From positions 4,512 through 68,511 of the forward strand of contig JAUWMT010000006.1 of the NCBI GenBank assembly GCA_030613025.1: DNA of 64,000 nucleotides, given 5' to 3'. Of the stretch, positions 7,449 to 64,000 are shown one piece after another. Source of the stretch: Candidatus Cloacimonadota bacterium (GTDB taxonomy: Bacteria > Cloacimonadota > Cloacimonadia > JGIOTU-2). The position numbers were made by a program, and so were the translations under genes. Numbering within the stretch: position 1 is the first letter of the stretch; each line of letters starts with the position of its first letter. The notes under the pieces were generated by a model that worked only from the letters and a program-made list of their open reading frames with translations, did not search any database and was not told the DNA's origin.

Positions 7449-10130
7449 CTATTTCATAATTAACATTTTGTGAACAGCACTCTTGTCACCCGAAATGAGT
7501 TTATAGAAATAGATGCCGTTCTTCACGTCTCTGCCATGCCTGTCACAGCAGTCCCATGTAAGTGTGTAATATCCGTTCTTAGTTCCTGAGGATATAATTC
7601 CGTTACAGTCGATCGTTTTGATCAATTGTCCTCGCAGGTTATAGATATTCAATTCCGTATGTTGTGCTTTCTGTTCCGGCATAAAGCTTATCGTTGTCGT
7701 GTTTGCCCTTACAGGATTGGGGTAATTCTGCATCAGTTGTAATTGAGGAATATAAGAATAATTATTAGTATTAAGCTGGACTGTTACAAAGTTGTTACGC
7801 TTATAGAATAATGATTGCTCTACATAAGCTTGAACTTCTTTACTATACATCACATAAGGAATTGACTGGGGTGATTGACCTTTTTGCCCTTCGAAATATA
7901 ATCTGAACTCCAATCCGTTATTTCCATTCTTCAGAGTTTCGGGTGTGTATGCAAGGATTTGAACAGGATAACCATCTGTCACTTTACTTGCACCAATACA
8001 TTGATCATCGTTATATACAGCTATCTCCGCAACGATTGTATCAGTATAGACTGTATCGATCATTATCGGCATGTAATCGAGTTCCTCGTTATACGTAAAG
8101 TAATCTGTCATTTCCTTGGTCTTTGGTGGAACAGGGGGTGATGACTCATTCCATACTAGTTCACATTCTTCATACACTTCAATTATGTACAACTCTCCCG
8201 GATTAACAGTAAGAAGACTAACTATTCCCGGAGTCGTTCCCGGCTCGGGACGTTCAACAGCCCAGTGCTCAGAATACACAGAACTCCATTCATCCCATAT
8301 CGAATCAAAAGCATCGGTAAAAGCAGCAGGTTCTTCTAAAAAACACCCGACCCAATTTTCCTGGTTTGTGAGGAGTGTTATCGGTGTGCTTACATCCTCC
8401 CATGAACCGGAGATTCCCTTTACGGGTATGTTATCGTATTGTTCTTTAATTTCTACCTTGTATCCCTGCTTGCTGTCAAATTCACCATCGGTTAAGTTCG
8501 TGTGCCAACCATCATCAAACCATACTGCATTTAAATTATTATACACGACCCGATAAAGGATGTCATCGTTTGGATATCCAGGGAATATTAATTCCTGTCG
8601 TTCAAGAACATTGAGAGCTTCCATCCAGTTGTTGGTTGTTCTGTTCAGTACGGGAAATGATATCCAGTCCACGTTATCAAACTCTTCATTATCATAGTCA
8701 TCTTTGAAGTAGTCATGTGCTATTGCCGGTAATGCCCCCATGTCTGCGGGAGTGCCGTCATCATCCTCGAATTGCTCATAAGGATGTCCGGTGTCTATGC
8801 ATGGGGAGAAGTCGGTTCCATCCCAGCCGAGTGAGTAATCATCGTTTTCGGGATCGGTAAAAACTGGATCAACATGAATACAGTTTAATTCCTGTGTCGG
8901 TGGTGAATCATAGTTACCCGAACTATTTTCAAAGAGATCTGAAAATTTAACAACCAATCGTTCTGTTCCTGTATCCCAGTAAATACCATATCCATCATTG
9001 TAAGCAATAATATTATTGTTGATACCGTAATAATATCCAGAATCTAGTAACAATATAGCAGCTCCAGGGGGATTAAGCACTTCATCAAAATCATTATCTA
9101 CAATAGTATTGTTGTCAATTATATAAGAATCTGAACTTGAATAGGATGGGCAATGTCCAATACATATGGCTGAACTTGAATATATACAAGTATTTTCATA
9201 TATAAGATTATCACAAATAGTAATTTCAGCATTGTCTGTAAGATATATTAAATTCTGTGGTTCATTGTTATAAATTCTGTTATTCGTAATCTCAATTGGA
9301 TCATCATTATAGTTCCAAGATATATCAAACTCAGCATAGATTAACGAACCTTCTCCAACTGATATAGGACCATTATCATCTTGATAATTATTATAAATTG
9401 AATTATTATCAATAGTGGGAGAATTATTTTCATCGGCGAGTATATAAATTGCAATTCCTTGACGATCTACTGTCGTAGTATATCCAAGGTAGGACATTAT
9501 TGTGTTACCATATATTGCGTTGTTTTGTATAGTAACATCACCCTTGCATGCTATCGCAACACCACCTTCGACATCAATACCTTCATTATTCCTGATTATA
9601 CAATCCTCAACAATAGTATTGCCTTCACAATATATTGCTATTCCTAAGCCATAATGATTTGGTCCAGTTGTATTGTAGAAAGTACAGTCCTCAATTATAC
9701 AGTTACTAATCGTTGGAGAGGCACCATTGTCACATAAAATTACAGCACCTTTGTTTATTCCGGAATATTGGTTAAATCCGAAATCCCTAATTGTAAATCC
9801 GTAAATCAAGTCGTCGTTATTGATTGAAGAGTCAGTTAAATTGAACGCCCTATAATAATCGCCGTAACCTTCACCTTCAATAATACAGTCATCAGGACCA
9901 TAAACCGATCTTACTGTAATGTGTTTATTTTGCCAGTGAAGATCTCGATCTTCATAGTCTGAATATACACCATCAAGAACGAAGACTACATCTCCATCTT
10001 CAGCAGCATCAATACCGTCCTGTATCGTAAGAAAATCTCCACCACCATTACAATCAACAACTATCGTATCAGCAAGACACAGTGTTACTGTGAATAGCAC
10101 TAATCCTGCTGTGCAAATTATTTTTTTCAT
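7449..10130 (-). CDS. secreted beta-helix protein with a long C-terminal extension and T9SS sorting domain
   Basis: The ORF track gives 7449..10160. The start at 10130 (MKKIICTAGLVLFTVTLCLA, preceded by agagg) is more likely. It has N-terminal beta-helix repeats, an SPCIDTGHP...DDDGTPADMG module and a YPNPVRANTTTISF...IYNLRGQLI...GIYFYKL tail. Confidence 0.85.
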   Translation of the reverse strand: MKKIICTAGLVLFTVTLCLADTIVVDCNGGGDFLTIQDGIDAAEDGDVVFVLDGVYSDYEDRDLHWQNKHITVRSVYGPDDCIIEGEGYGDYYRAFNLTDSSINNDDLIYGFTIRDFGFNQYSGINKGAVILCDNGASPTISNCIIEDCTFYNTTGPNHYGLGIAIYCEGNTIVEDCIIRNNEGIDVEGGVAIACKGDVTIQNNAIYGNTIMSYLGYTTTVDRQGIAIYILADENNSPTIDNNSIYNNYQDDNGPISVGEGSLIYAEFDISWNYNDDPIEITNNRIYNNEPQNLIYLTDNAEITICDNLIYENTCIYSSSAICIGHCPSYSSSDSYIIDNNTIVDNDFDEVLNPPGAAILLLDSGYYYGINNNIIAYNDGYGIYWDTGTERLVVKFSDLFENSSGNYDSPPTQELNCIHVDPVFTDPENDDYSLGWDGTDFSPCIDTGHPYEQFEDDDGTPADMGALPAIAHDYFKDDYDNEEFDNVDWISFPVLNRTTNNWMEALNVLERQELIFPGYPNDDILYRVVYNNLNAVWFDDGWHTNLTDGEFDSKQGYKVEIKEQYDNIPVKGISGSWEDVSTPITLLTNQENWVGCFLEEPAAFTDAFDSIWDEWSSVYSEHWAVERPEPGTTPGIVSLLTVNPGELYIIEVYEECELVWNESSPPVPPKTKEMTDYFTYNEELDYMPIMIDTVYTDTIVAEIAVYNDDQCIGASKVTDGYPVQILAYTPETLKNGNNGLEFRLYFEGQKGQSPQSIPYVMYSKEVQAYVEQSLFYKRNNFVTVQLNTNNYSYIPQLQLMQNYPNPVRANTTTISFMPEQKAQHTELNIYNLRGQLIKTIDCNGIISSGTKNGYYTLTWDCCDRHGRDVKNGIYFYKLISGDKSAVHKMLIMK

Positions 10131-46596: not shown

Positions 46597-47496
46597 TTAT
46601 TTTCTGTCGCCATGTGGGTGCGCTGTTTTGTATACTTCTTTTAATTTCTGCATGGAAGTATGGGTATATATTTCTGTTGATGTCAAGCTGCTATGCCCGA
46701 GAAGTTCCTGCACAGAACGTAGATCAGCGCCGTGATTGAGCAGGTGGGTTGCAAAGGTGTGCCGAAGGGTGTGAGGACTGTAATTCTTGGATTTTTCAAT
46801 AACTTTCAGATATTTATTCACAATATATCTGAGCTCGTCAGCTGAGAGGGGATTGCCATTTTTAGATACAAAAATTTGAGGAACATCTATTGCTTTAATA
46901 AAAGATCCACGAATTTTCAGATATTTTTGCAAAGCAGCAATTGCATAACTTCCCATCGGAATGATCCTTGTTTTTGAGCGTTTACCAAGTACTTTTATCT
47001 GATCCTGTCTGAAATCCACATCCTTGATCTTGAGTCCCGCAAGCTCTCCGATACGAATTCCTGTGCTATACAGCAGCTCAAGAATGGCGATATTCCGAAT
47101 CCCAAGTGCATCTTCTTTGTCAGGAATTTGCAGAACGAAACGCATGTCGTTTTCAGTAAGAAAGGTAGCAGCATGTTTTTCAAATTTTGGGATCTTAATT
47201 TCGATGAGAGGATTATGTGTTGTAAGATCATTCTGTATCAGGTACGAAAAGAATGCTTTGACAGAGATGACCTTTCTGGCGAGGGTTCTGTTGCCGTCCT
47301 TTTGCTCGCTGAGATGCTGAAGGAAATCTCGAAACATGGATTTATTTATCTCTTCAACAATAATGATCTCATCAGGAAAAAATTTCTTAATAAACTCAAA
47401 AAATTGCTCAACATCTCCAAGATATGCACGAAGAGTGTGATTAGAATAATTTTGTGAAACGAGATATTCTTTATATTTTTGAATTAACTTTTCCAT
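46597..47496 (-). CDS. tyrosine site-specific recombinase, XerC/XerD family
   Basis: The N-terminal SAM-like domain has TLRAYLGDVEQF. The catalytic region is GIRIGEL...RIIPMG...HTLRHTFATHLLNHGADLRSVQELLGHSSLTSTEIYTH. Confidence 0.9.
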   Translation of the reverse strand: MEKLIQKYKEYLVSQNYSNHTLRAYLGDVEQFFEFIKKFFPDEIIIVEEINKSMFRDFLQHLSEQKDGNRTLARKVISVKAFFSYLIQNDLTTHNPLIEIKIPKFEKHAATFLTENDMRFVLQIPDKEDALGIRNIAILELLYSTGIRIGELAGLKIKDVDFRQDQIKVLGKRSKTRIIPMGSYAIAALQKYLKIRGSFIKAIDVPQIFVSKNGNPLSADELRYIVNKYLKVIEKSKNYSPHTLRHTFATHLLNHGADLRSVQELLGHSSLTSTEIYTHTSMQKLKEVYKTAHPHGDRK

Positions 47497-52720: not shown

Positions 52721-53737
52721 ATGAAGAAACCTCTCATTCTTGCGATAGAAACCTCCTGTGACGATACCTCCGCAGCACTAATCGATGGAAATTGTAATGT
52801 GCTCTCCAATGTGATTTCTTCTCAGGAAGAAGTGCATCTGAAGTATGGAGGAATTGTGCCGGAGCTTGCATCCCGTGAGCATATTCGTACACTGATCCCA
52901 ATCGTGGAAATGGCTCTTGAAAAAGCAGAAATGGGCTTGAAGAATATCGATGCTGTCTCAGTTTCTGCAAATCCCGGACTGATCGGTTCTTTGCTTGTCG
53001 GCGTGTCTTTTGCGAAAGGATTGGCTTTCAGTTTAAGGAAACCACTTATCGCAGTGAATCATATTTTCGGGCATGTGTTCGCTAATTTTTTGGAGAATAA
53101 AGATATTGAGTTCCCTTTTTTATCGCTCATTGTTTCCGGCGGGCATACAGAACTGGTGATCTTTTCTTCATCACTTGAATATACTATTCTTGGAAAAACC
53201 GTGGATGATGCAGCTGGTGAGGCATTTGATAAGATCGGAAAGCTGCTTGGTTTGCCCTACCCGGGTGGACCTCATATTGATTCCCTTGCTGTAGGTGGAA
53301 ACAAGCTTGCTATTGAATTCCCGCTTCCAATGCTCAAGCATAATAATTTTGATTTCAGTTTCAGCGGATTGAAAACTGCCGGCATGCTCTATCTCAAAAA
53401 AAAAGGGATACTCGATGAAGCTCAAACTCATGATTTTGCTGCGAGTTTCCAGCATGCGATCGTTGAAGTGCTCTTCCTGAAAACGATCAAAGCGCTGAAA
53501 GAACACTCATTGAAAACACTTTTACTTGCAGGTGGGGTTGCTGCGAATTCCGAGTTGAGAAGCGTGTTTGCAAACTATTGCAAAGAACACGACATCAAAC
53601 TTTATTATCCTTCAGAAAAGTACTGCACAGATAATGCAGCGATGATCGGGGCAGCTGCTCAATTCAAATATAGAAATAAAAAATTCGCATCCCTCGAACT
53701 GAATGCATCTTCTGTGAAGGGCATGAAACTGCTATGA
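52721..53737 (+). CDS. tsaD: tRNA N6-adenosine threonylcarbamoyltransferase TsaD
   Basis: ILAIETSCDDTSAALI...GGIVPELASREH...VSANPGLIGSLLVG...VNHIFGH...VSGGHTEL...GEAFDKIGKLLGLPYPGGP. Confidence 0.95.
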   Translation: MKKPLILAIETSCDDTSAALIDGNCNVLSNVISSQEEVHLKYGGIVPELASREHIRTLIPIVEMALEKAEMGLKNIDAVSVSANPGLIGSLLVGVSFAKGLAFSLRKPLIAVNHIFGHVFANFLENKDIEFPFLSLIVSGGHTELVIFSSSLEYTILGKTVDDAAGEAFDKIGKLLGLPYPGGPHIDSLAVGGNKLAIEFPLPMLKHNNFDFSFSGLKTAGMLYLKKKGILDEAQTHDFAASFQHAIVEVLFLKTIKALKEHSLKTLLLAGGVAANSELRSVFANYCKEHDIKLYYPSEKYCTDNAAMIGAAAQFKYRNKKFASLELNASSVKGMKLL

Positions 53738-54858
53738 TCTTTTTCTATATTCTGTATGGGCTGACTGCACTGTACAGTTTGTTCCTCTTATTTCTCATTG
53801 TGGGAACTTTCAGGGTCAACAGAAGTATTTCTTCAGTGAAGAAAAATCATAACATTTCAGTTATTGTTGCTGCCCGGAATGAGGATAAGCATTTATCTGC
53901 ATTACTGAACGATCTGCTGAAGCAGGAATATCCTCAAGACAAATTTGAAATCATAATTACGAATGACCGCTCGACAGATAAAACCGATTATATCCTTAAT
54001 AATTTTTCCCGAAAATATCCTCAGATAAAATATATTTCTATTCAAGACGAATTAACTGAACTGATCGGGAAGAAGCGTGCACTTACTGAAGGGATCAAGC
54101 ATGCACAAGGTGAAGTCCTGCTCTTCACAGATGCGGATTGCAGGCCCGGGAAATTCTGGCTGCGTTCCATGAATAGGGTGTTTTCACGGGGATTTGATGT
54201 TGTGGTTGGCTACTCTCCTCTCAAATGTCAGAGCAAAGGTTTTGGCAAAAGGATCATCTGCATACTGAAAAAACTTGAGCGGCTTGCAATATTTACATTA
54301 TCTGCCGGCAGCATTGGTTGGAATTGGGGAATTACCGCAACAGGCAGGAATTTTGCCTACAAAAAGAAGGTGTTCGAATCTATCAACGGATTTGAAGGAA
54401 TTGGACATATCCCGTCCGGCGACGACGATCTCTTTCTTCAAAAGATCAGCAAAAGCCATTCTTACAAAATCGGATTTGCTACTCATCCGGACAGTTATGT
54501 TCCTTCAATTGAGGAGAAATCTCATTCCCAGACATTTCAGCAGGAAAAGCGGCGCGGTTCGAAATGGCAATACTACCCGGTGCTCATAAAAAGTGTCTCT
54601 CTCCTTGCCTTCATTTTTCTTTTATTATTATTGATAACTTTCGTCCTTGCATTAGCAGGGGTCGTGACATGGAGATCCTTCCTTATTGTATTTCTCGTAA
54701 AAAGCTTACTCGACTTCCTCATTCTTCTGCGTGGTGCAACTATCTTCAGAGAATATATTTCATTGCTTGTCTTTCCATTTGTGGAAGTGCTGTATGCTCC
54801 CTATTTTATCATTTTTGGATTGCTGGGCACGTTAAGTAAATATAAATGGAAAATGTAA
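53734..54858 (+). CDS. family 2 glycosyltransferase, membrane-bound
   Basis: ISVIVAARNEDKHLSALLNDLLKQEYP..FEIIITNDRSTDKT, then FTDADC (DxD-type), then C-terminal TM helices. Confidence 0.85.
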   Translation: MIFFYILYGLTALYSLFLLFLIVGTFRVNRSISSVKKNHNISVIVAARNEDKHLSALLNDLLKQEYPQDKFEIIITNDRSTDKTDYILNNFSRKYPQIKYISIQDELTELIGKKRALTEGIKHAQGEVLLFTDADCRPGKFWLRSMNRVFSRGFDVVVGYSPLKCQSKGFGKRIICILKKLERLAIFTLSAGSIGWNWGITATGRNFAYKKKVFESINGFEGIGHIPSGDDDLFLQKISKSHSYKIGFATHPDSYVPSIEEKSHSQTFQQEKRRGSKWQYYPVLIKSVSLLAFIFLLLLLITFVLALAGVVTWRSFLIVFLVKSLLDFLILLRGATIFREYISLLVFPFVEVLYAPYFIIFGLLGTLSKYKWKM

Positions 54859-54911
54859 AATTATTCGATTGGCTGGATCACCAGTTTACCAGTTTACTAA
54901 TTCACCAATGA

Positions 54912-54988
54912 CCAGCTCTTTTTCATTGACAATGAATTAAGTAAATTATTTATAGAGCCATCGGCTGAGGATAAAAAATGGAAAATTT
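54912..54988. repeat. island junction repeat a (promoter-like: TTGACA-N17-TTTATA / N19-TATAGA)
   Basis: ccagctctttttcattgacaatgaattaagtaaattatttatagagccatcggctgaggataaaaaatggaaaattt closely matches 57115-57190. Its left part (actaattcaccaatgaccagctctttttcattgaca, from 54896) matches 61898-61933. Confidence 0.8.
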
Positions 54989-55104
54989 GATATGTATTTA
55001 AAAAAAGACAGAGGTTTAAAATAAAGATGATTTATTTTTATAACCCCACAAAAAAAACGAAAAATAAGCTACAATAAGTAACTAAACATAAATAAAGAGA
55101 ATTT

Positions 55105-55947
55105 ATGAACGATATTGGAAAATATGAAATAAATAAGGTTTATTGTGGTGATTGCGTTGAAATGATGAAATTAATACCTGAATCAACTATAGATTTAGTA
55201 GTTACTTCACCACCATACGATAAAATTCGATTTTATAAGGGAAATTTAGAGTTTGACCTTCATAAAACGGGTCAAGAAGTATTTAGAGTTTTAAAAAAAG
55301 GTGGTATAGCAGTAATGGTTATTCAAGATCAAACAAAAAATTTTGGAAAATCATTAACTTCGTTCAAAACAATAATTGATTGGTGTGACAATATTGGCTT
55401 CAAATTATTTGAAACAGTAATTTATCGAAAACATGGATCAGAAGGAGCGTGGTGGACAAAGAGATTTCGAGTTGATCATGAATATATGCCGATATTTTTA
55501 AAGGGATATAAACCAAATTATTTTAATAAAGAACCATTAAAAATTCCTTCAAAGCATGGGGGTAAAGTAATGACGGGTAGTGGGTCGAGAAAAACTAATG
55601 GAGAAACGCAACACACCGTCACAAGACAAATAAATTTTAAAAAATGTAGAGGTACAATATGGGAATATTTAATGGCTGGTGATAAAAATCCATTAAAGAG
55701 AAAACATCCAGCAGTTTTTCCAGACAAGATACCGTATGATTTTATACAGTGTTTTTGTCCTGAAGAAGGTATCGTATTAGATCCATTTGCTGGAAGTGGA
55801 TCAACTCTAGTAATGGCAAAAAAACTAAGACGTAATTTTATTGGGTTTGATGTTGTCCCAGAATATTGTGAATTAGCAAGAGAACGCTTGAAAAAAGAAA
55901 CTAATGAAGATCAAACAAACATCTTTTCAAATATAATAAAAAAGTAA
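55105..55947 (+). CDS. DNA methyltransferase, beta class (N4-cytosine or N6-adenine; SPPY suggests m4C)
   Basis: Motif IV is DLVVTSPPYD (residues 30-39), near the N-terminus. It also has HPAVFP, and motif I is LDPFAGSGST near the C-terminus. This is the circular permutation of the N-4/N-6 MTase family. Confidence 0.9.
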   Translation: MNDIGKYEINKVYCGDCVEMMKLIPESTIDLVVTSPPYDKIRFYKGNLEFDLHKTGQEVFRVLKKGGIAVMVIQDQTKNFGKSLTSFKTIIDWCDNIGFKLFETVIYRKHGSEGAWWTKRFRVDHEYMPIFLKGYKPNYFNKEPLKIPSKHGGKVMTGSGSRKTNGETQHTVTRQINFKKCRGTIWEYLMAGDKNPLKRKHPAVFPDKIPYDFIQCFCPEEGIVLDPFAGSGSTLVMAKKLRRNFIGFDVVPEYCELARERLKKETNEDQTNIFSNIIKK

Positions 55948-55957
55948 AGGCGATTGT

Positions 55958-56587
55958 ATGGCTATTCAAGATTTATTAAAAGATAAGACTGATCAAATTG
56001 ATTATGATTCTATTTGTAAAAAGTATAGTTGGATTTTGGAAGAGAATCACTGTTGCGTTTTAAGTCCTGATAGTGACGGATTTCTTTGTGGCTTATTTAT
56101 GTCAATGATCCTTAAATGGAAAATTGTGGGTTTTTATGACGGAAAAGTATCGGTGGTGAAAAAGAAGTATCTAAATAAAAATCCAATATTTTTAGATATT
56201 GAAATATTCAGAAAAGAAATCCGTAGTATGGGACACCACATGTTATTAGTTAATAAAAGACATGTACCAGAAGAATGGAAAAATTTTGATAACTGTATTC
56301 AACCAAATAATCTACGAAACTACGATGGAAGGAATAATTTTAGATTAAAATACCCCTTGGCAACAATTCATATGCTAATAAGTATTGTTACTTATAAATG
56401 CAAAGAAATTAAAATTCCTGAATCTGCAATTCCTCCATTGTTTTTTACAGATGGTGTATTTAATATTTTATTCCGTTATCCAGAAAATGTGTTAAATTGG
56501 TTAAATTATTTAAGAATCAATGAAAGCTGGAATCCTCTGAAAACCATTTTTGAAAATGATAAATATAGTGTTTTTACTTTACTTTAA
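55958..56587 (+). CDS. unknown protein, candidate restriction/effector partner of the methyltransferase (part 1)
   Basis: 209-aa ORF starting 11 nt after the MTase stop. I recognise no family. It contains acidic/His clusters (SPDSDG, FLDIEIF, MGHHML). Confidence 0.5.
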   Translation: MAIQDLLKDKTDQIDYDSICKKYSWILEENHCCVLSPDSDGFLCGLFMSMILKWKIVGFYDGKVSVVKKKYLNKNPIFLDIEIFRKEIRSMGHHMLLVNKRHVPEEWKNFDNCIQPNNLRNYDGRNNFRLKYPLATIHMLISIVTYKCKEIKIPESAIPPLFFTDGVFNILFRYPENVLNWLNYLRINESWNPLKTIFENDKYSVFTLL

Positions 56588-56988
56588 TGAAAGAAATGGA
56601 CAGTTTTTTTCGTAGAAGGGACGCTATAAGTATTAGTAAAGAGCGTGGTGATAGATTAAGGATTTCAAATAAAGATGGTACACCTACAAATATTGAAAAC
56701 ATCCCAAGTGGAAATTGTATTATTAATTCAGAAGCAAAAAAAAGAATTGTTGATTTTATGAAAATTCTATCAGATTTAACAGAATGGGAATATGAAGAGA
56801 ACGACTGGTTGTGTTGGGAAGATATGAAATTCTTCCAATTTAAAAAAGGTGATTTCAAAGGTGATAGAAAAACGATTACAATTCAAACTTTTAAAGAATT
56901 TATTGAAAAAAAACCACTATCATGGGCGATGACAAGTGGTGATAATATTGAATATACATTAGAGGAGCCGGATAAACTTCTAAAATAA
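56587..56988 (+). CDS. unknown protein, candidate restriction/effector partner (part 2)
   Basis: 133-aa ORF whose ATG overlaps the upstream stop (TAATG). This indicates translational coupling or a frameshifted single gene. No motif recognised. Confidence 0.5.
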   Translation: MKEMDSFFRRRDAISISKERGDRLRISNKDGTPTNIENIPSGNCIINSEAKKRIVDFMKILSDLTEWEYEENDWLCWEDMKFFQFKKGDFKGDRKTITIQTFKEFIEKKPLSWAMTSGDNIEYTLEEPDKLLK

Positions 56989-57114
56989 TCTTCATCAAAT
57001 GGATAGTAAATAAGAATGATAGGTTTAATTTCAGACTGAGCACACCTTTCTCCTTATCCGAATACAGCATGCTTATTTCTATACTCGACTCGAGTGAGAA
57101 CGGTTTTGGAATAG

Positions 57115-57190
57115 CCAGCTTATTTTATTGACAATGGATTAAGTAAATTATTTATAGAGCCATTGACTGAAGGATAAAAATGGAAATATT
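57115..57190. repeat. island junction repeat b
   Basis: ccagcttattttattgacaatggattaagtaaattatttatagagccattgactgaaggataaaaatggaaatatt is a direct repeat of 54912-54988, 2.2 kb away. Confidence 0.8.
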
Positions 57191-57334
57191 TATTTGCGAA
57201 ATACGCGCAATATTGCGTGAAACCTACCGAATTTGGAGGTATTCATGCAATAAATTGCAGGGATATAAACGTTAGGCGAAATGCAATAGCATTATGTTAT
57301 CAGACAATATTCGACAAATTATAGGTGTATAAAT

Positions 57335-60049
57335 ATGAAAAAACAAATCAAAATAATACTTGATCCCGAAATATCAGATTCTCAAAAGGGAGATTTCTTT
57401 GAGGATCTGGTTCGTAGTATTTTTGAGACCCAAAGGTATGATATTACACAACGGGTTAATTTTACAGGAATGGAAATTGACTTAATCGCTAAACATAAAG
57501 ATATATCGGAAACTGCTTATATAGAGTGTAAGGCAAGAGAGAGACTTAATTCTGATGATATAAGAACATTTGCTTTTAATGTAGGACATCGGGAAGCAAA
57601 TCATGGATATTTTATATCAACCACAGAATTTGAACACCAGGTAGCCGGTTTGATTGAAGAAATGAAAGGGAAAGAGAAATATGCAAATCTATATTTCTGG
57701 AAGCCAGATAAAATATTTGAGCTACTTGAAAGTGCAAAAGTAATAACTCCATTAGCACTCAGTAAAATAAAACATACCATCACTAAAACCATTCTCTCGT
57801 ATACATATTTTGGAACTTTTTATATATTGATTTTAATGAAAAATACAATCCCCTCTCAATTCTGTGTCTACAATGCTATGAAAGCCTCTCTAATTGAAGA
57901 TAATAATATAATCGAAAAACTAAAGAATGCTATATCGGAAATTAGAGATCTAAACTATCTCTCCATCCCAACAGCCGTTAAAGAAACACCAGAGGAGGAA
58001 TTTCGTGAGACCGTTGCTGAAGTACATGAGAGTGAAAATTGGTACGATTATCTTCCCGCTTCAACGAAACATTTCATTGGTAGGAAGGATTTAAAAACAA
58101 ATTTATTTGATTTCATTGATCAAGCAAGTTCAAAGAAAACGTCCCGTAGGATCTTTTATATTGATGGAAAGTCTGGTTGGGGCAAGAGTTCTTTAATCAC
58201 TGACTTAAGAGGGAGAAGTAAAAATAAGTTTTATCGTAAGCGTTATTTTGTCCTTGCGGTAGATGCCCGAAGTGTTTCGTCGAGTAACTTCGTAGCATTA
58301 GCATTCAATAAACTTATTGAAAATGCAACAGAGGCTGGTTTTTTAAAAACGACTCTTTTTTTTCATCCAAACGTGGATATCATTTCCAGCTTTGATATAT
58401 TGGGTTCGGAATCGGTGCGTCAGTTATTCAAGGGCTTAGAGAGCCAAAATAAAACTTTAATATTAATATTTGACCAATTTGAAGATGTATTCAGAAAACC
58501 GGGCCTCTTCAAGGCCTTTCATAAATTTTTGCTTGATGTCGATGAGGTTAAATCTAATCTCATTCTGGGATTTTCATGGAAATCTGAAATAAATATACCA
58601 ATCGACCATGAAGCCTATCATCTATGGCAGCAAGCAAAAAATTTTGCTTTTTGCATTTCAATGAGAGAATTTAATCCACCTGAAATAAATGGAGTTATTA
58701 AACAATTAGAAAAATCTATTAGTAAACCAATAGATTTGGATCTTAAAAGGCGTTTGATTGAAAGTTCTCAAGGATTCCCTTGGTTAATCAAAAAACTGTG
58801 TATTCATACTTATAAGCAATTGAAAGCAGGAAAGACAATTGAAAACTTAGTTGAACAAGATTTAAACTGCGAAGTTTTGTTTAAAGATGACGAGGAAGGA
58901 TTGTCTCCTGAAGAGATCAAAGCACTAAACTATATTGCAAACCGTTCTTTTGACGGTAATTTCTTTGATGCAACCGAAGTGGATGAAAAAATTGATGAAT
59001 CTGTTATAACTGCACTTATTTATAATCGTCTCGTTGTAAAATCAGGTACAAAGTATAACGTATATTGGGATATTTTTAGAGACTATTTAGTAACTGGGAA
59101 AGTCCCTCCAATCGGTGAGAGTTATATCCTTCGGCAGTATGTAAGCGTTTGCTTTTATGTATATAAGCTATTTAAAGATCAAGAGAAACTTAATTTGGAT
59201 GAAATTAAGAAACTGCACCCAAGGCATCCGGGAATACGAACACTTGATAATATTCTACGTGAATTAAGAAGTATAGGTTTAATACGGAAATCAGGTGAAA
59301 ACTTCCAGAGGAGTAGGAAGGATATACCAGCAACAGATGATGGTTTTAGAGAATATATTAAGGAAAAATTTATGCGATATACCCCTTATTTAAAATTGAA
59401 TAATTTAAAAAACAAAGAAATTGGTATTTCAGAAATAGTCTCTACTTTGAAGGACATTTTCAGAGGGATATCATTCACAGAAAAAACATGGATTACTTAT
59501 TCAAAATACCTTATTAGTTGGTTCCAATTTGCAAATTTAGATATTCAAGATAGATTGGTAGTATTAAAAAAAGGAAGGCATGTCGGAATTAGTAGAATAC
59601 AACAATTTGATAATAGAGAAACCTTTACTCCTCAAAGTCGCCCCAAGAAAGATATTGAGGTTTTTCGCAACCTTACAGATCAAGTGAAAATTAGTAACTT
59701 TAGTAAGTTATATAAGTCCTTCTATGATTTAAACTCGATTGGCTTAATTAAATATTCTAGGAAAAAAGTACGCCTGACAGAAAAGGGTAAGCTAATTTTG
59801 AAAAAAGTTGGCAAAAAGGAATTTGAAAAATTAATTGCAATTGCAACCCTAAAAACCAAAAAATTAAAGCAATCTGCAAAGTATTTTTTTGAACATCCAG
59901 AATGCACAAGAAAAGAATTTGGTAAAGCATTATCAAATTTAACATCTAATATAAATTCGGAAGCATATAAAAAACAAGTAAATCATGTACTTTACGTCTG
60001 GGCAAAGTTTATTTATGATCATTTAAAGAACTCAAATTGGATTCAGTAA
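57335..60049 (+). CDS. Mrr-like PD-(D/E)xK nuclease fused to STAND/AAA-type P-loop NTPase and C-terminal winged-helix-like repeats (NLR/Avs-like defence candidate)
   Basis: The N-terminus is GDFFEDLVRSIF...GMEIDLIA...AYIECKAR..L....IR.F (Mrr-cat pattern; D49, E64, K66). FIGRKDLKTNLFDFI then precedes the Walker A IDGKSGWGKSS (G278-S285). The Walker B is LILIFDQFED (about 375-384) and the GxP-type motif is SSQGFPWLIKKL (about 478-489). Residues ~520-904 contain several wHTH-like units (e.g. LRELRSIGLIRKSGENF, LNSIGLIKYSRKKVRLTEKGK). Confidence 0.8.
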   Translation: MKKQIKIILDPEISDSQKGDFFEDLVRSIFETQRYDITQRVNFTGMEIDLIAKHKDISETAYIECKARERLNSDDIRTFAFNVGHREANHGYFISTTEFEHQVAGLIEEMKGKEKYANLYFWKPDKIFELLESAKVITPLALSKIKHTITKTILSYTYFGTFYILILMKNTIPSQFCVYNAMKASLIEDNNIIEKLKNAISEIRDLNYLSIPTAVKETPEEEFRETVAEVHESENWYDYLPASTKHFIGRKDLKTNLFDFIDQASSKKTSRRIFYIDGKSGWGKSSLITDLRGRSKNKFYRKRYFVLAVDARSVSSSNFVALAFNKLIENATEAGFLKTTLFFHPNVDIISSFDILGSESVRQLFKGLESQNKTLILIFDQFEDVFRKPGLFKAFHKFLLDVDEVKSNLILGFSWKSEINIPIDHEAYHLWQQAKNFAFCISMREFNPPEINGVIKQLEKSISKPIDLDLKRRLIESSQGFPWLIKKLCIHTYKQLKAGKTIENLVEQDLNCEVLFKDDEEGLSPEEIKALNYIANRSFDGNFFDATEVDEKIDESVITALIYNRLVVKSGTKYNVYWDIFRDYLVTGKVPPIGESYILRQYVSVCFYVYKLFKDQEKLNLDEIKKLHPRHPGIRTLDNILRELRSIGLIRKSGENFQRSRKDIPATDDGFREYIKEKFMRYTPYLKLNNLKNKEIGISEIVSTLKDIFRGISFTEKTWITYSKYLISWFQFANLDIQDRLVVLKKGRHVGISRIQQFDNRETFTPQSRPKKDIEVFRNLTDQVKISNFSKLYKSFYDLNSIGLIKYSRKKVRLTEKGKLILKKVGKKEFEKLIAIATLKTKKLKQSAKYFFEHPECTRKEFGKALSNLTSNINSEAYKKQVNHVLYVWAKFIYDHLKNSNWIQ

Positions 60050-60455
60050 GTAGTAGGAAACAGGTGGTAGATACGAGTGCACTATGCCTAACAGCGGATA
60101 AAAGGCTCAATTTGTTCGCCCAAATTGCCTTCTGCAACTTCATTTATCCACAAAACATTATATGCCTTTGAATATCAACTAACTTATTTACACATTTATC
60201 TCACCCAAGTCGGGTTTTGTACCTTAAAATTTAACATCAGTCATTATTTTGCAGAAAAATTTCATCCATTTCTTGAAGTCTATAATTAATAAATACACAT
60301 TAACTAAAAACGATAGTTGTTTTTCGCGATTTTTCATTTTTCTCTGTGTCCTCCGCCTGCCAAGGCGTAGTGGAACGTAGACTGGTGGTGAATTATCTTT
60401 TATAACGGTTTGTCCGGGTTTGGTTTTGTAATGAATAGCGGAGAATTATCCAATA

Positions 60456-60576
60456 CCCAACTTCTTTTTATTGACAACCATCCCCTCATCAGGGAAACCA
60501 TCTATCAATCATTATGAAAGTACGAGTTTTAGCAAGCGGAAGCAAAGGAAACTGTATTCTGGTTTCCGGTCAGGGA
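60456..60576. repeat. island junction repeat c (promoter + first 21 codons of the MBL-fold gene)
   Basis: cccaacttctttttattgacaacc...ATGaaagtacgagttttagcaagcggaagcaaaggaaactgtattctggtttccggtcaggga is parallel to 61913-62031. The 63 nt from the ATG differ at 5 positions. Confidence 0.85.
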
Positions 60577-60789
60577 GACAAATCAAAAACAGAGATTTCA
60601 ATTGATACGCTTCTTAAAAAACATTATCCAAAAGCTAAATTCATTGGCTTTGTTGATGGGATCGGCTGGTATGTTAGGAAAAATGATTTGAAGAGAATGG
60701 TAACAGCTTATGAAGATGTTTTCACTTTTCATCAGGATGAATTGCAACGATTCAGAGAATTAGTAAAGGAAGTTTTAACAAATGATTGA
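60514..60789 (+). CDS. chimeric ORF: MBL-fold N-terminus (MKVRVLASGSKGNCILVS) fused to the C-terminal remnant of another gene (probably the restriction partner of the downstream MTase)
   Basis: The first ~19 codons duplicate the start of 61970..62212. The rest (…KFIGFVDGIGWYVRKNDLKRMV…) is unrelated and overlaps the MTase start by 8 nt (ATGATTGA), as in an R-M operon. Confidence 0.4.
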   Translation: MKVRVLASGSKGNCILVSGQGDKSKTEISIDTLLKKHYPKAKFIGFVDGIGWYVRKNDLKRMVTAYEDVFTFHQDELQRFRELVKEVLTND

Positions 60790-61757
60790 AAAATATATTA
60801 ACCAGATAATTCAGGGAGATTGTTTAGATTTATTCAAAAAAATCCCCGATAACTCAATCGATATGACTTTCGCTGATCCTCCTTTTAATCTAAAAAAGAA
60901 ATATAACAGTTATAAAGATTCATTAGAGTTTAAAGAATATCTTGATTGGTGCAAAAAATGGATTTCCGAAATGGTGCGAGTAACAAAACCGACCGGTTCG
61001 ATTCTTGTTCATAATATACCCAAATGGCTTACTTATTTTGCAGAAATTTTTAAATAAAAAAGCAGATTTCAAACATTAGATTTCCTGGGATGCTCCGACT
61101 GCTCCAATGGGAAAAACCTTACAACCTTCACATTATGGTATTTTATTTTATGCAAAAAATCAAAAGGAACTAAAATATTACGAAATAAGGTATCCTCATA
61201 AAAGAGATAGAAAAACAGGTTATTTACTAAAAGATTATGGTGGGGAAAAAGCTCTTTTACATCCTTTCGGTCCATTAGTTTCCGATGTATGGACGGATAT
61301 TCACAGGATCAAACATAATAAAAGACGTGATCCTCATCCTTGTCAGCTTCCCATCCATTTGCTCGAAAGACTAATATTAATGACTACCAATGAGGGTGAT
61401 ATTGTCCTTGATCCTTTTATAGGAACAGGAACTACTGCAATTGCCGCTAAAAAATTGAGTAGAAAATATATCGGATTTGAAATAGACAAGCAGTATGTTA
61501 AAATTGCTAATAATAAACTTATTAGAATTCAGAACAACTCAAGGATAGGCGATAGTTGGGTAAGTTTTTATTTAGAGGAACCTCGAACTATAAGAAATTC
61601 AGACTGGGAACTAATCAAAGATTATTTCTCAATACCAATAGACTTAAGGGATATTGATAAAGAGAAAATTACATTGAAAAAACATAGAAAATTAGTCAAA
61701 ACCGAGCAAATCAAAGTTTTGGAAATTTTCAATAAAGTAGCAGCCAACAGTAGATAG
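60782..61757 (+). pseudogene. beta-class DNA methyltransferase disrupted by a frameshift and an in-frame TAG
   Basis: ORF 60782..61057 carries IIQGDCLDLFKKIPDNSIDMTFADPPFN (motif IV DPPF). ORF 61107..61757 carries HPCQLP and LDPFIGTGTTAIAAKKL (motif I). The second frame extends upstream as NKKADFKH-TAG(61077-61079)-ISWDAPTAPMGK. The reading frame shifts by +1 in the A/T run around 61041-61060. Confidence 0.75.
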
Positions 61758-61912
61758 ATAATGTTGTATGATTTCAGTGAAGTGTCATGAATCAATCCAT
61801 AACGTATTTTCCCAGAGGCATTAAGTTTATATTAATTCATTATTAAAATTCATACATCAGTTCCGAGTTAAAATTCTGCATACCAATTCACATATATACT
61901 AATTCACCATTG

Positions 61913-62031
61913 ACAACCTCTTTTTATTGACATTCATCCCATTTGTCATGAATTCATCTCTCAATTAATATGAAAGTACGAGTTTTAGCAAGCGGAAGTA
62001 AAGGAAACTGCATACTGGTTTCCAGCCAGGG
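61913..62031. repeat. island junction repeat d (native promoter and start of the MBL-fold gene)
   Basis: See repeat c. The upstream part shares actaattcaccattgacaacctctttttattgaca with junction a. Confidence 0.85.
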
Positions 62032-62212
62032 ATCTGCCCTTTTGGTGGATGCGGGATTGAGCTTGAAGCGTCTAAGAGAGATACTTTTTGACATTGATTT
62101 CCCAATTAAGGATATTCAAGCCATCGTTATTTCTCATTTAGGTGGAATCTTCCGAATCCGCCGCAGCACGCATGATCGTTATACCCCATGCAAAACAGTA
62201 AAAATATTTTAA
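61970..62212 (+). pseudogene. truncated MBL-fold metallo-hydrolase gene
   Basis: MKVRVLASGSKGNCILVSSQGSALLVDAGLS...IQAIVISH follows the MBL-fold N-terminus up to where the HxHxDH motif should begin. It then diverges (LGGIFRIRRSTHDR...) and stops after 80 codons. Confidence 0.65.
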
Positions 62213-62215
62213 AAA

Positions 62216-63022
62216 ATGGATAAAGCTATGAAAGTAAATAGGTGTTCCCGCCGGAAAATTCTTAATCCTTGTGGCTTAGAAATGCACAATTATCAAATAG
62301 ATACTTACATCGGCTGTGAACATTTGTGTCGTTACTGTTATGGATTAAACGATGCTGAGACTGACTGGCACAAAGAAATTATGATTCATGAAGACATTCT
62401 TGAACAATTGGCTCAGGAGATGAACTCTCTGGAACCGCAGTCTATTTACATAGGAATGAATAGTGATCCTTATCAACCTTCTGAGAGAAATTTCAAGCAG
62501 ACTGGAAAAGTATTGGAATTATTAGCAGAAAGAGGTTTCTCAGTTTGCATCTTGACCAAATCGGAACTGGTAACAAGAGACATCGATCTTCTTAGGAAAA
62601 TGCCAGATTCCTCCGTAGGTTTTTCTATCGCTTTCCATGACGAACAAACTCGTCAACTGTTCGAAAAACAAGCACCTTCGAACAAGGAAAGGTTAGAAGC
62701 TCTTGGAAAATTGAAAAGTTCCGGCATCAAAACATACGCTTTAATCTGCCCGATAATGCCCTTTATCACAGATATCGACTCAGTAATAGAACTGGTATCT
62801 CCATATTCAGATACAATTTGGGTATATAAACTACACATGGAGTCAGAGAATGATAAAAACTGGCTTAATGTAAAATCCATTTTAGACCAGCACTTCCCTG
62901 AATTAACTGAGCAATATCAGAAAATCGCCTTCTCGAAAAATCATTCATACTGGAAAGGAATTCGACATAAACTAGAAGAAATTAAAAGTAAGAAATGCTT
63001 AAATTTAAAAATAGAATTATAA
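62216..63022 (+). CDS. radical SAM protein, SplB/DNA-photolyase-like (COG1533-type)
   Basis: IDTYIGCEHLCRYCYG is a CxxxCxxC cluster in the N.Y.GC.H.C.YCY context typical of the SplB-like family. The size is 268 aa. Confidence 0.8.
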   Translation: MDKAMKVNRCSRRKILNPCGLEMHNYQIDTYIGCEHLCRYCYGLNDAETDWHKEIMIHEDILEQLAQEMNSLEPQSIYIGMNSDPYQPSERNFKQTGKVLELLAERGFSVCILTKSELVTRDIDLLRKMPDSSVGFSIAFHDEQTRQLFEKQAPSNKERLEALGKLKSSGIKTYALICPIMPFITDIDSVIELVSPYSDTIWVYKLHMESENDKNWLNVKSILDQHFPELTEQYQKIAFSKNHSYWKGIRHKLEEIKSKKCLNLKIEL

Positions 63023-63177
63023 AAAATCAGCAATATACTGCACGGTGTATAACAATGTATGCACAAACTCCGCAAGCTCCGTTCGTGGCACACACCAACC
63101 GTTATACGACAAACATCGCTCTAAAAAGGCAAATCATCAATGGTTGGTAAAATATTTATTTAACGGAGTATTTAACA

Positions 63178-63690
63178 GTGTTTGAACTGAAAACTGAAAG
63201 ATTGAGAGTAATACCTTTAAATTTGGAAAACTTAAGATTACTTATTGAAGATCGGCAAAGGATGGAGAGAAATTTAGGATTACAAATTACTGGCAATATG
63301 CTTGATGAACATGTTAAAAAAGCTGTGGAGATTTCGCTCAAATATGCTATTGAGGATGAAAAAAATTATCTGTGGCACACTAATTGGCAAATAGTATTAA
63401 AAGAAGAAAAATGTAGTATAGGTAGTTTAGGTTTCAAAAATTGCCCCAATGAAAATGGTGAAGTTGAAGTTGGTTATGACCTACAACCTGAATATCAAGG
63501 AAAAGGGTATATGACCGAAGCATTAAAAGAGATAGTTAAATGGGCTTTCGAGCAACCGCATATTTCATCTGTGATTTCTGAAACAGAAAAAACAAATAAA
63601 CCATCTTACAGAGTATTAGAAAAAGTTGGAATGATAAAATATAGAGAAACCGAACAATGTTTTTGGTGGAAAATTACAAGAACAAAATGA
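63178..63690 (+). CDS. GNAT-family N-acetyltransferase (RimJ/RimL-like)
   Basis: GTG start. TERLRVIPLNLENL...VGYDLQPEYQGKGYMTEALKEIVKWAF......ISETEKTNKPSYRVLEKVGM contains the acetyl-CoA binding Q/RxxGxG/A motif. Confidence 0.85.
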   Translation: MFELKTERLRVIPLNLENLRLLIEDRQRMERNLGLQITGNMLDEHVKKAVEISLKYAIEDEKNYLWHTNWQIVLKEEKCSIGSLGFKNCPNENGEVEVGYDLQPEYQGKGYMTEALKEIVKWAFEQPHISSVISETEKTNKPSYRVLEKVGMIKYRETEQCFWWKITRTK

Positions 63691-63870
63691 AACTGAGATT
63701 ACAAAAAGGACTAACATCAATCATTCTGATTATATCTTGACATCGATTAAAGAGCGCAGTCCTCGTATAAAAAGCGTACTAGCTCCTTACGGCGGCTCGC
63801 ACGCAAAACATTATATGAAATTGTTAAAACCTAATACCGAAAACCTAATACCTAATAAAGGAATGTATAG

Positions 63871-64000
63871 ATGAAGAAAGTAGGAATTCAACTTTTATTA
63901 ATAGCTGGATTATTTTTATTAATTGGACAGGTCTTTGCTGATGAACCATCACAAGCAGCAATTAAGCAAATACGCTCCTCAAATGGATCCCATTCTACTA
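63871..64000 (+). CDS. secreted protein, N-terminal fragment (runs off the right edge)
   Basis: MKKVGIQLLLIAGLFLLIGQVFADEPSQAAIKQIRSSNGSHST is a classical signal peptide. It is preceded by aaaggaatgtatagATG. Confidence 0.5.
   Translation, partial: MKKVGIQLLLIAGLFLLIGQVFADEPSQAAIKQIRSSNGSHST

Follow-up and report, generated by a model that had tools for sequence, protein, structure and literature searches.

How is a chromosomal defence hotspot built when its genes lie between long direct repeats and no integrase or transposase is encoded among them? This question is raised by a stretch of 64,000 nt (the window in what follows) from a Candidatus Cloacimonadota metagenome-assembled genome (MAG) of a cold-seep metagenome (assembly GCA_030613025.1, contig JAUWMT010000006.1, positions 4,512 to 68,511), in which an island of restriction-modification (R-M), nuclease-NTPase and other genes follows a GT2 glycosyltransferase gene. 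An earlier, sequence-only reading took the island for a series of cassettes delimited by direct repeats and suggested that one ancestral promoter had been duplicated repeatedly as cassettes entered at the same point. The present analysis leads to another answer. With a probability of about two in three, the island is a strain-variable hotspot that forms a patchwork of integron-type cassettes and of R-M operons without attC sites, and its repeats are diverged copies of two gene-start units, designated U and V, that were brought in by one-sided import. The repeats are scars, not insertion machinery.

A variable hotspot beside a conserved gene

The GT2 gene (53734–54858, on the plus strand like all features below unless otherwise stated; Pfam PF00535) is the conserved left anchor of the hotspot: the order Dus-TPR-YbbR-TsaD-GT2 is kept in about 30 public contigs, and the GT2 orthologues are 79–97% identical. 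It is followed on its 3' side by an N6/N4 methylase gene plus two open reading frames (ORFs), a gene for a 904-aa Mrr-nuclease/STAND NTPase, a chimeric 91-aa ORF, a two-piece methylase gene, an 80-aa stub of a metallo-β-lactamase (MBL)-fold gene and a radical-SAM gene, in agreement with the earlier description of the gene content. The island is also richer in A/T, as described, with a GC content of 0.32 in 54859–62215 and of 0.377 upstream.

More than ten distinct fillings are found 3' of GT2 among the relatives (whose loci are given L numbers): a gene for a 236-aa DpnII/MboI-like nuclease, followed by 207-aa and 154-aa genes, LNT and Rce1 (L003/L009/L006); genes for an OLD nuclease, DUF2130, a 390-aa protein and UPF0158, and an M1-R-M2 system (L004); an AbiE toxin-antitoxin pair (L010); the Tsp45I R-M system (L011/L013/L014/L015/L018); the first cassette of the window alone, followed by an intact 258-aa MBL gene (L024); and unrelated genes (L017, L021). 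The genes at this place are different, and mostly devoted to defence, in every relative checked, and the place is therefore a hotspot; the proposed variable defence and accessory region beside GT2 is borne out. The comparison with relatives that had been recommended thus revealed differently filled sites, but no empty GT2-MBL site among the relatives examined; L024 holds a single cassette there.

The right limit of the island, which had been drawn at the radical-SAM gene, has to be moved. A fifth junction, e, composed of an array of 8-bp units, the junction core described below and the 5' end of an MBL gene, lies at about 65240–65345 on the continuing contig (L002), about 1.3 kb beyond the window end, which places the genes for radical-SAM, GNAT and the 390-aa protein within the variable region. 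The island spans 54.9 kb to at least 65.3 kb.

The repeats as two gene-start units

The junction pairs were tested by local alignment against 200 shuffles. Junctions a (54912–54988) and b (57115–57191) match over 77 bp with a score of 105 (null 20.9 ± 2.6), junctions c (60458–60576) and d (61914–62032) match over 119 bp with a score of 141 (null 21.4 ± 2.7), and the sequence at the left of a (54873–54931) matches that at the left of d (61876–61932) with a score of 54 (null 20.6 ± 2.4). A separate repeat search recovers the same pairs (D1 88%, D2 84%, D5 80%, D11 89%). Both pairs are thus direct repeats, and all three similarities, which had been noticed in the sequence, hold in a formal alignment. 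The match between the left parts of a and d, although significant, does not represent a distinct module, but a variable tandem array of 8-bp units (AATTCACC/AGTTTACC) directly upstream of a T-run. No significant similarity was found by the same test between a and c, b and c or b and d, which have only a core of about 15–25 nt in common. This core, CTYTTTTNATTGACA with at most one mismatch, matches only at junctions b, c and d in the 64 kb, where 0.27 matches are expected; junction a contains it with a 1-nt insertion, and the pattern TTTT.?ATTGACA matches at all four junctions and nowhere else in the 64 kb, so that the claim of a common core stands.

In an alignment of all copies, the repeats resolve into two distinct gene-start units that have the core alone in common. 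Unit U, which follows GT2, comprises a hairpin with a CGGTTTTGG tail, the T-run, TTGACA, 17 nt, TTTATA or TTTTTA, a ribosome-binding site and ATGG(C/A)AAAT. In L039 and in the second copy of L004, U continues without interruption into an M1 methylase gene (MANNKKFYN...), and it is therefore the native upstream region of M1 together with the first three codons. Unit V, from the far side of the hotspot, comprises the core, a 5' untranslated region (UTR) and the first 9–56 codons of the MBL-fold gene. On this assignment, junction a is a truncated U, junction b a full U, and junctions c, d and e are copies of V. Thus, two units, the upstream regions of M1 and of the MBL gene, take the place of the single ancestral GT2-MBL promoter that had been proposed.

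Junction a (with its left part, 54873–54988) consists of the 8-bp array (54880–54916), the T-run and TTGACA (54926–54931), a 17-nt spacer, TTTATA (54949–54954), the ribosome-binding site and ATGGAAAAT (54978–54986), and its similarity to b stops directly after the third codon. Junction b (57098–57271) carries the CGGTTTTGG..CCAGC tail, TTGACA (57128–57133), TTTATA (57151–57156) and ATGGAAAT (57180–57187), followed by a hairpin-rich, attI-like leader (57189–57271) that ends ...ATAAACG↓, where the arrow marks the putative crossover point. The idea that the left of junction b preserves a piece of the GT2 3' end was considered and rejected, as the alignment scores are barely above those of shuffles beyond the last ~40 nt.

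Junction c (60458–60576) contains the core, TTGACA (60471–60476), the 5' UTR and MBL codons 1–21 (60514–60576); at codon 21 it is joined to the C-terminal part of a restriction-enzyme (R) gene via a 9-bp microhomology, GGTCAGGGA (60568–60576). Junction d (61876–62137) consists of the 8-bp array, the core, TTGACA (61927–61932), the 5' UTR and MBL codons 1–56 (61970–62137). Thus, c and d hold TTGACA and the 21 MBL codons in identical register, as had been seen, with a 5' UTR of about 40 nt in between. Junction d is 88% identical to the beginning of the full-length MBL genes (258 aa) in L003, L018 and L024, and the homology ends at TCTCAT, where the stub runs into the middle of an attC: its 3' half (62138–62178; GGAATC..CCGCCGCAGCACGC ATGATCG↓) matches the attC 3' halves of L003 and L004. 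An integrase-made secondary-site event at d was rejected because GWT/GTT is missing from the native MBL sequence where the two are joined. The intact 258-aa MBL-fold gene, which flanks the hotspot in L003 (8680–9456), L018 (14197–14973) and L024 (13436–14212), matches the Anti-Pycsar Apyc1 family and Lactamase_B, and a Na/Ca exchanger gene always follows it.

The right ends of the repeats vary, with 3 codons in a, 21 in c, 56 in d and 9 in L029. The copies within this genome are 84–88% alike, i.e. 12–16% different, about the same as copies between genomes, and c, in which the first ~95 nt after TTGACA are identical to the L014 copy, is nearer to that copy than to d. An exact-pattern scan with the promoter part of U found it in only two GTDB genomes, where the one or two copies per genome all lie at this hotspot, and in no viral contig; U is therefore not a genome-wide repeat.

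A promoter activity of U and V may be inferred from a perfect -35 hexamer that a 17-nt spacer separates from a T-rich second hexamer, and from the location of the units directly 5' of the M1 and MBL start codons; the metatranscriptome contigs break at the repeats and give no transcription start sites. If the units are promoters, the repeats themselves could be the functional element, a shared promoter and operator module, with the 8-bp repeats as binding sites, that is selected for co-regulation. The perfect TTGACA and the upstream T-run in all copies and genomes, together with the 8-bp arrays upstream, would fit such a role, and in a lake metatranscriptome an R-M contig behind U is about threefold deeper than the GT2 contig, which is a weak indication. 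However, several copies (c and d) would have nothing but stubs or broken genes to drive, a regulator gene is missing, the second hexamer and the spacer differ between U and V, and the conservation reaches into coding stubs, which regulation would not keep. Selection for co-regulation as the reason for the repeats is thus highly improbable.

Cassettes bounded by attC-like sites

The real cassette delimiters are attC-like palindromes with (G/A)↓TTA crossover points, which were recognized by hand from motifs, folding and complementarity. In L003, three sites of about 125 nt with the structure R''(..YTAAC)-AAGCGTGTCG...CGCACACGC-NAAACA↓TTA are present, one after each of three genes, and four cassettes begin with the exact reverse complement of their own R'', over 8–11 nt (start/R'' pairs TTATGCAC/GTGCATAA, TTAGGGGCAA/TTGCCCCTAA, TTATGCGT/ACGCATAA and TTATGCCTATT/AATAGGCATAA). 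Complementarity of a cassette start to its own downstream site points to a circular cassette recombined at G↓TT, and therefore to an integron attC. The STAND, radical-SAM, GNAT and 390-aa genes of the island are likewise integron-type cassettes.

The STAND cassette (57272–60157) contains the 904-aa gene (57335–60049; Pfam Mrr_cat and nSTAND1) and an attC-like site of 72 nt (60086–60157; R'' GCCTAAC at 60086–60092) that ends AAAACA↓ at 60157; its start, TTAGGC, is complementary to its own R'' GCCTAA over 6 nt. The radical-SAM cassette (62179–63101) starts G↓TTATACCCC and contains a SplB-like radical-SAM gene (62216–63022) and an attC of 58 nt (63044–63101; GGTGTATAAC...ACCG↓; R'' GTATAAC at 63047–63053, R' ..ACCG↓); the bottom strand of this site folds as R box, spacer, L box and loop, and the start TTATACCCC is complementary to GGTGTATAA at 8 of 9 nt. 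The GNAT cassette (63102–63810) starts TTATACGA, contains a GNAT acetyltransferase gene (63178–63690) and ends in an attC-like site (63763–63810; TCGTATAA ... AAAACA↓) that is, at 48 nt, below the usual 57–141 nt of the family; the start TTATACGA is complementary to TCGTATAA over 8 nt. The 390-aa-gene cassette starts at 63811 with TTATATGAAATTG..., runs to the window end at 64000 and continues to about 65068 on L002, where junction e follows. [quoted passage not shown] The family consensus reads RYYYAAC for R'' and GTTRRRY for R', within an imperfect palindrome that has R and L boxes.

Some observations on single sites should be added. Several attC sites end after the 5' part, R'' plus L'' (L003 7627 and 8558, window 60398, and about 65061–65068 in window-equivalent positions of L002), and then run into unrelated sequence or into the core and V. 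The homology of the 390-aa cassettes of the window and L004 ends exactly at R'' (TCTAAC); an integrase crossover predicts R', not R''. The radical-SAM protein is nearest to the NCBIfam 'radical SAM mobile pair protein B' (rSAM_mob_pairB) with 151 bits, below the cut-off of 410, and no partner A gene is adjacent.

Three cassettes recur with the same boundaries, with one exception for STAND in L047, and with different neighbours, which marks them as independently mobile. Homologues of the STAND protein that are 75–87% identical occur in several phyla. In one lake Cloacimonadota relative (L041/L051), the STAND cassette is located between tamB and bamA and has both ends as in the window: the same leader-type site at the 5' end and the same attC at the 3' end, with the homology stopping at AAAACA↓TTA. 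In an Acidobacteriota MAG (L047), it is part of another co-oriented array and has the same attC end, with an attC that begins GCCTAAC; there the left boundary is shifted inwards by 27 nt, to a second crossover-like site (TTATCAG, window 57299). The protein identity is 83–84% to L041/L047, with 83% for the Acidobacteriota MAG, and 78% in an Eremiobacterota MAG. A radical-SAM cassette with the same two ends but other neighbours is also present in L041, and the left boundary of the 390-aa cassette, (G/A)↓TTATATGAAATTG, is found behind three different upstream sequences (window, L004 and L014).

Positions 10001–18500 of L051, the same place as in L041, form a second integrase-less array between tamB and bamA with 439-aa, 535-aa, STAND, 172-aa and radical-SAM genes. 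Marine-sediment metagenome contigs pile up on window positions 59840–60156 with a summed depth of 383, compared with 4–56 in the other bins, which suggests that the STAND 3' end with its attC is multi-copy in the marine-sediment community. Assembled (Logan) contigs of the source sample show no excision joints, although contigs cannot show absence.

Restriction-modification units and proposed one-sided import

The two R-M units of the island have a different make-up. Cassette 1 (55073–56992) has no attC and contains a type II N6/N4 DNA methylase gene (55105–55947; Pfam PF01555, PADLOC MTase_II) and a second gene that is frameshift-split (55958–56587 and 56587–56988) and is one 341-aa ORF in L024; the cassette is 88% identical to L024 11349–13268. 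The 341-aa gene has no family match and is only presumably the R partner. Cassette 3 (60564–61757) is the remnant of a decayed DpnII-like M1-R-M2 system, with a C-terminal R-gene fragment up to 60789 and a frameshifted M2 methylase gene in two pieces (60782–61057 and 61107–61757), which is intact with 323 aa in L014. The island thus holds two frameshift-split pseudogenes, the methylase partner in cassette 1 (55958–56988) and the M2 methylase (60782–61757). The R/M2 remnant is 87% identical to L004 16836–17184, and the whole chimera of junction c and M2 is 89% identical to L014 13417–14727 (L014/L033), where it stands behind the Tsp45I system; as the chimera is common to both loci in different contexts, it arose once and was moved as a block. 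Between the STAND cassette and junction c lies a remnant without an ORF (60158–60457), which contains the inverted copy of TAATTCACCA at 60381–60397, found as described earlier, and from 60398 the 5' half of an attC (TTTTATAAC GGTTTGTCCGGGTTTGG); L003 shows the same order of attC 5' half, core and V.

The clearest record of an exchange comes from L029 and L033, which have identical GT2 proteins and 99% identical flanks, but different segments in between. Their identity falls off some 60 nt short of the stop codon of the Tsp45I methylase gene, and on the right unrelated genes meet in an abrupt joint. One side of this recent swap is a homologous crossover, and the other is an illegitimate joint.

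A similar course of events could explain the repeats. DNA from diverged relatives would be imported, with homology anchoring one side and an illegitimate join on the other, either by homology-facilitated illegitimate recombination or by Campbell-type integration of a circularised fragment via the shared unit. Each import would carry the donor's own copy of U or V while the recipient's copy stays, and microhomology deletions would later trim displaced genes to stubs. One-sided import would thereby yield diverged repeats, a fixed left edge where the homology of donor and recipient starts, variable right edges and microhomology joints.

Two other explanations assign the repeats to insertion itself. 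In the first, which is close to the sequence-only reading, the T-run/TTGACA core is a dedicated insertion point, and site-specific entry duplicates the resident promoter in place. It has in its favour that the core is the sole element common to all junctions, with left and right modules assorting independently around it, that it is absent from the rest of the 64 kb, and that cassettes of relatives are also bracketed by such units (L010). However, duplication by entry at one point is hard to reconcile with right ends of 3, 9, 21 and 56 codons, with a microhomology joint at c and a joint to the middle of an attC at d, with copies that are 12–16% diverged and with a c that is nearer to the L014 copy than to d; the L029/L033 swap breaks away from the core, inside the methylase gene, and no recombinase is present. 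Entry at the core is therefore very unlikely. What remains of cassettes delimited by repeats is that gene-start units recur at the seams, also in relatives (263 bp in L010), whereas the site-specific boundaries are the attC-type (G/A)↓TTA points, which the sequence-only reading had missed.

In the second explanation, the R-M units themselves duplicated a target of 77–263 bp in situ upon insertion, and the attC cassettes are unrelated neighbours. Insertion of R-M genes with long target duplication is said to have been described by Nobusato in 2000. Here, each of the two R-M units, both inserts of less than 20 kb with no mobility gene, lies between direct repeats of more than 30 bp (77 bp for cassette 1 and 119 bp for cassette 3), and relatives have a single copy of the repeat unit in the equivalent position (V in L003, L018 and L024; U in L004 and L019). 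Such insertions of R-M gene complexes have been documented for all R-M types, with repeats of 46–423 bp (Furuta, Abe & Kobayashi 2010, PMC2853133). Unlike in those cases, the repeats here are far from identical, hold gene starts and are stacked at one hotspot, and a divergence of 12–16% fits a duplication in situ less well. In addition, the same pattern brackets non-R-M cargo, i.e. the AbiE pair in L010 and the attC cassettes between d and e (radical-SAM, GNAT and 390-aa genes), cassette 3 has a left repeat that forms a chimera with the R gene and is therefore later than the arrival of the R-M unit, cassette 1 is present in L024 without flanking repeats, and no exactly empty allele was found among the relatives. 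Long target duplication is thus an unlikely origin of the repeats.

It should be noted that several results weigh against the patchwork of integron-type cassettes and imported R-M operons that we prefer. The attC sites were not derived from the IntegronFinder covariance model, and seven attC seeds of 60–134 nt align badly at the 5' end. No integron integrase is found in the 64-kb window, and the arrays of L003, L024 and L051 have none within a distance of 10 kb. Two of the six genes that follow U copies are verified attC cassettes (STAND and the 236-aa gene of L003), and in L010 the AbiE pair is flanked by 263-bp U repeats and abuts the next U without an attC. A promoter scan with the sigma-70 consensus leaves the junction sites out, as their second hexamer, TTTATA, fails the A2/T6 rule; of the promoters that the repeats had been said to carry, TTGACA is thus present at the junctions, while the promoter is predicted. 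The route of homology plus illegitimate join would be backed by one clear swap and two joints, and it is not observed for a and b. Lastly, the shared core of 20–26 nt is a recurrent breakpoint between left and right modules, just after TTGACA, and import does not fully account for this.

Proposed docking of cassettes, and the recombinase

Six U copies in five genomes lose their homology at one nucleotide, ...GGGATAYANAC(G/A)↓TTA, and are then followed by six different genes. The leader of U, which is a candidate for an attI-like site, ends AAC(G/A)↓TTA in all six copies and has no R'' partner. These data suggest that U, which in most copies is fused to the attI-like leader, is a promoter-plus-docking platform for the first cassette. 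The leader of about 90 nt before the crossover (window 57189–57271, L010 3075–3164, L041 3865–3950) forms three small hairpins or one long one, which are kept by compensatory changes between genomes, and the window copy folds with z = -3.4; an Rfam scan of 50–64 kb gave no match. The leader may act as DNA, in the form of an attI-like site, or as RNA, in the form of a structured 5' leader.

Domain searches revealed no integrase or transposase domain in any ORF of the island, as had been stated before. A complete integron, with intI beside attI and the cassette promoter Pc, is not present in the 64-kb window, which has no intI, and the array, with no integron integrase nearby, is therefore CALIN-like. 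The only tyrosine recombinase gene in the window (46597–47496, minus strand) lies outside the island and is XerC/XerD-like: the protein scores 308 bits with NCBIfam XerC and 128 bits with the integron integrase model TIGR02249, for which the cut-off is 265, and a 20-residue offset is consistent with the absence of the extra IntI domain. The gene is 89–94% identical in all relatives, including L017, which has no array, and 80% identical in L021, which has no array either; it is better conserved than GT2 among the relatives and has no paralogue in the window. A role as integrase of the array was rejected on the grounds of this conservation and of its presence where no array exists; it is probably a housekeeping gene.

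Other known routes were also considered. The 28-bp XerC/XerD sites, with two 11-bp arms and a 6-bp spacer, of pdif modules and of integrative mobile elements exploiting Xer (IMEX) are absent from the junctions; only junction a has a 7-1-7 palindrome, which is not kept in b, c and d. IS200/IS605 elements and repetitive extragenic palindromes (REP) with their transposases (RAYT) were rejected, as no transposase domain is present and further copies of the inter-cassette sequences are absent from the window and from the loci of relatives; for the same lack of copies, these sequences were rejected as REP or miniature inverted-repeat (MITE) families.

A more far-reaching model would be that U is a conserved integrase-less docking platform, made of promoter and attI-like site, that is kept beside GT2 throughout a Cloacimonadota clade and is served in trans by a non-canonical recombinase, e.g. 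one of Xer size without the extra IntI domain. In this case the stub repeats would be systematic by-products of DNA capture at the chromosomal edge of the arrays, and the system would be an undescribed variant of integrons in the Fibrobacteres-Chlorobi-Bacteroidetes (FCB) group. We regard this model as unlikely.

Relation to known systems

The locus joins known kinds of organization: the CALIN, the defence hotspot and R-M units flanked by long direct repeats. Clusters of attC sites and single attC sites (SALIN) without an integron integrase have been described (Cury et al. 2016, PMC4889954). The co-oriented single-gene cassettes found here resemble them: each has an imperfect palindrome with R'' (..YTAAC) and R' ((G/A)↓TTA..) and a start that is the complement of its own R'', one and the same cassette can be found in different arrays, and no integrase is nearby. 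Unlike in those clusters, R' is often ATTA instead of GTTA, the sites were set by hand, an attI-like leader fused to a methylase gene start would be the docking point with no intI beside it, and one cassette, with the 904-aa STAND gene, is unusually large. Cassettes can insert outside integron platforms and are expressed if they are near resident promoters (Loot et al., bioRxiv 10.1101/2022.09.11.507474); in agreement with this, the first attC cassette here lies behind a resident promoter-like unit. In the literature searched, no work on integrons of Cloacimonadota was found.

Integron cassettes can also encode anti-phage defence (Kieffer et al., bioRxiv 10.1101/2024.07.02.601719), and sedentary chromosomal integrons have been termed defence biobanks, according to work cited in PMC12614218. 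The island is similar in that defence genes are attC cassettes, and cassette shuffling by natural transformation and homologous recombination has been reported for those integrons. It differs in the lack of an integrase and of a canonical platform, and the defence role of STAND is predicted only (no PADLOC match). Core defence hotspots (cDHS) between conserved genes are known, e.g. in Pseudomonas aeruginosa (PMC10250203), and share with this locus that the flanking genes are conserved, that the defence systems differ from relative to relative and that mobile-element markers are lacking. In contrast to these, the seams here carry attC sites and gene-start stubs, a visible record of exchange.

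The locus thus is a worked example of a chromosomal defence hotspot that was built without an integrase or transposase of its own and has left readable scars, which would come from the traffic of integron-type cassettes, from homologous exchange with relatives and from deletions at microhomologies. It puts attC cassettes, one of them with a large Mrr-STAND (Avs-like) gene, in Cloacimonadota, and suggests that cassettes can use a promoter-like unit already resident at the site as a standing platform for expression and docking. Should the recombinase prove to be non-canonical, the finding would matter even more.

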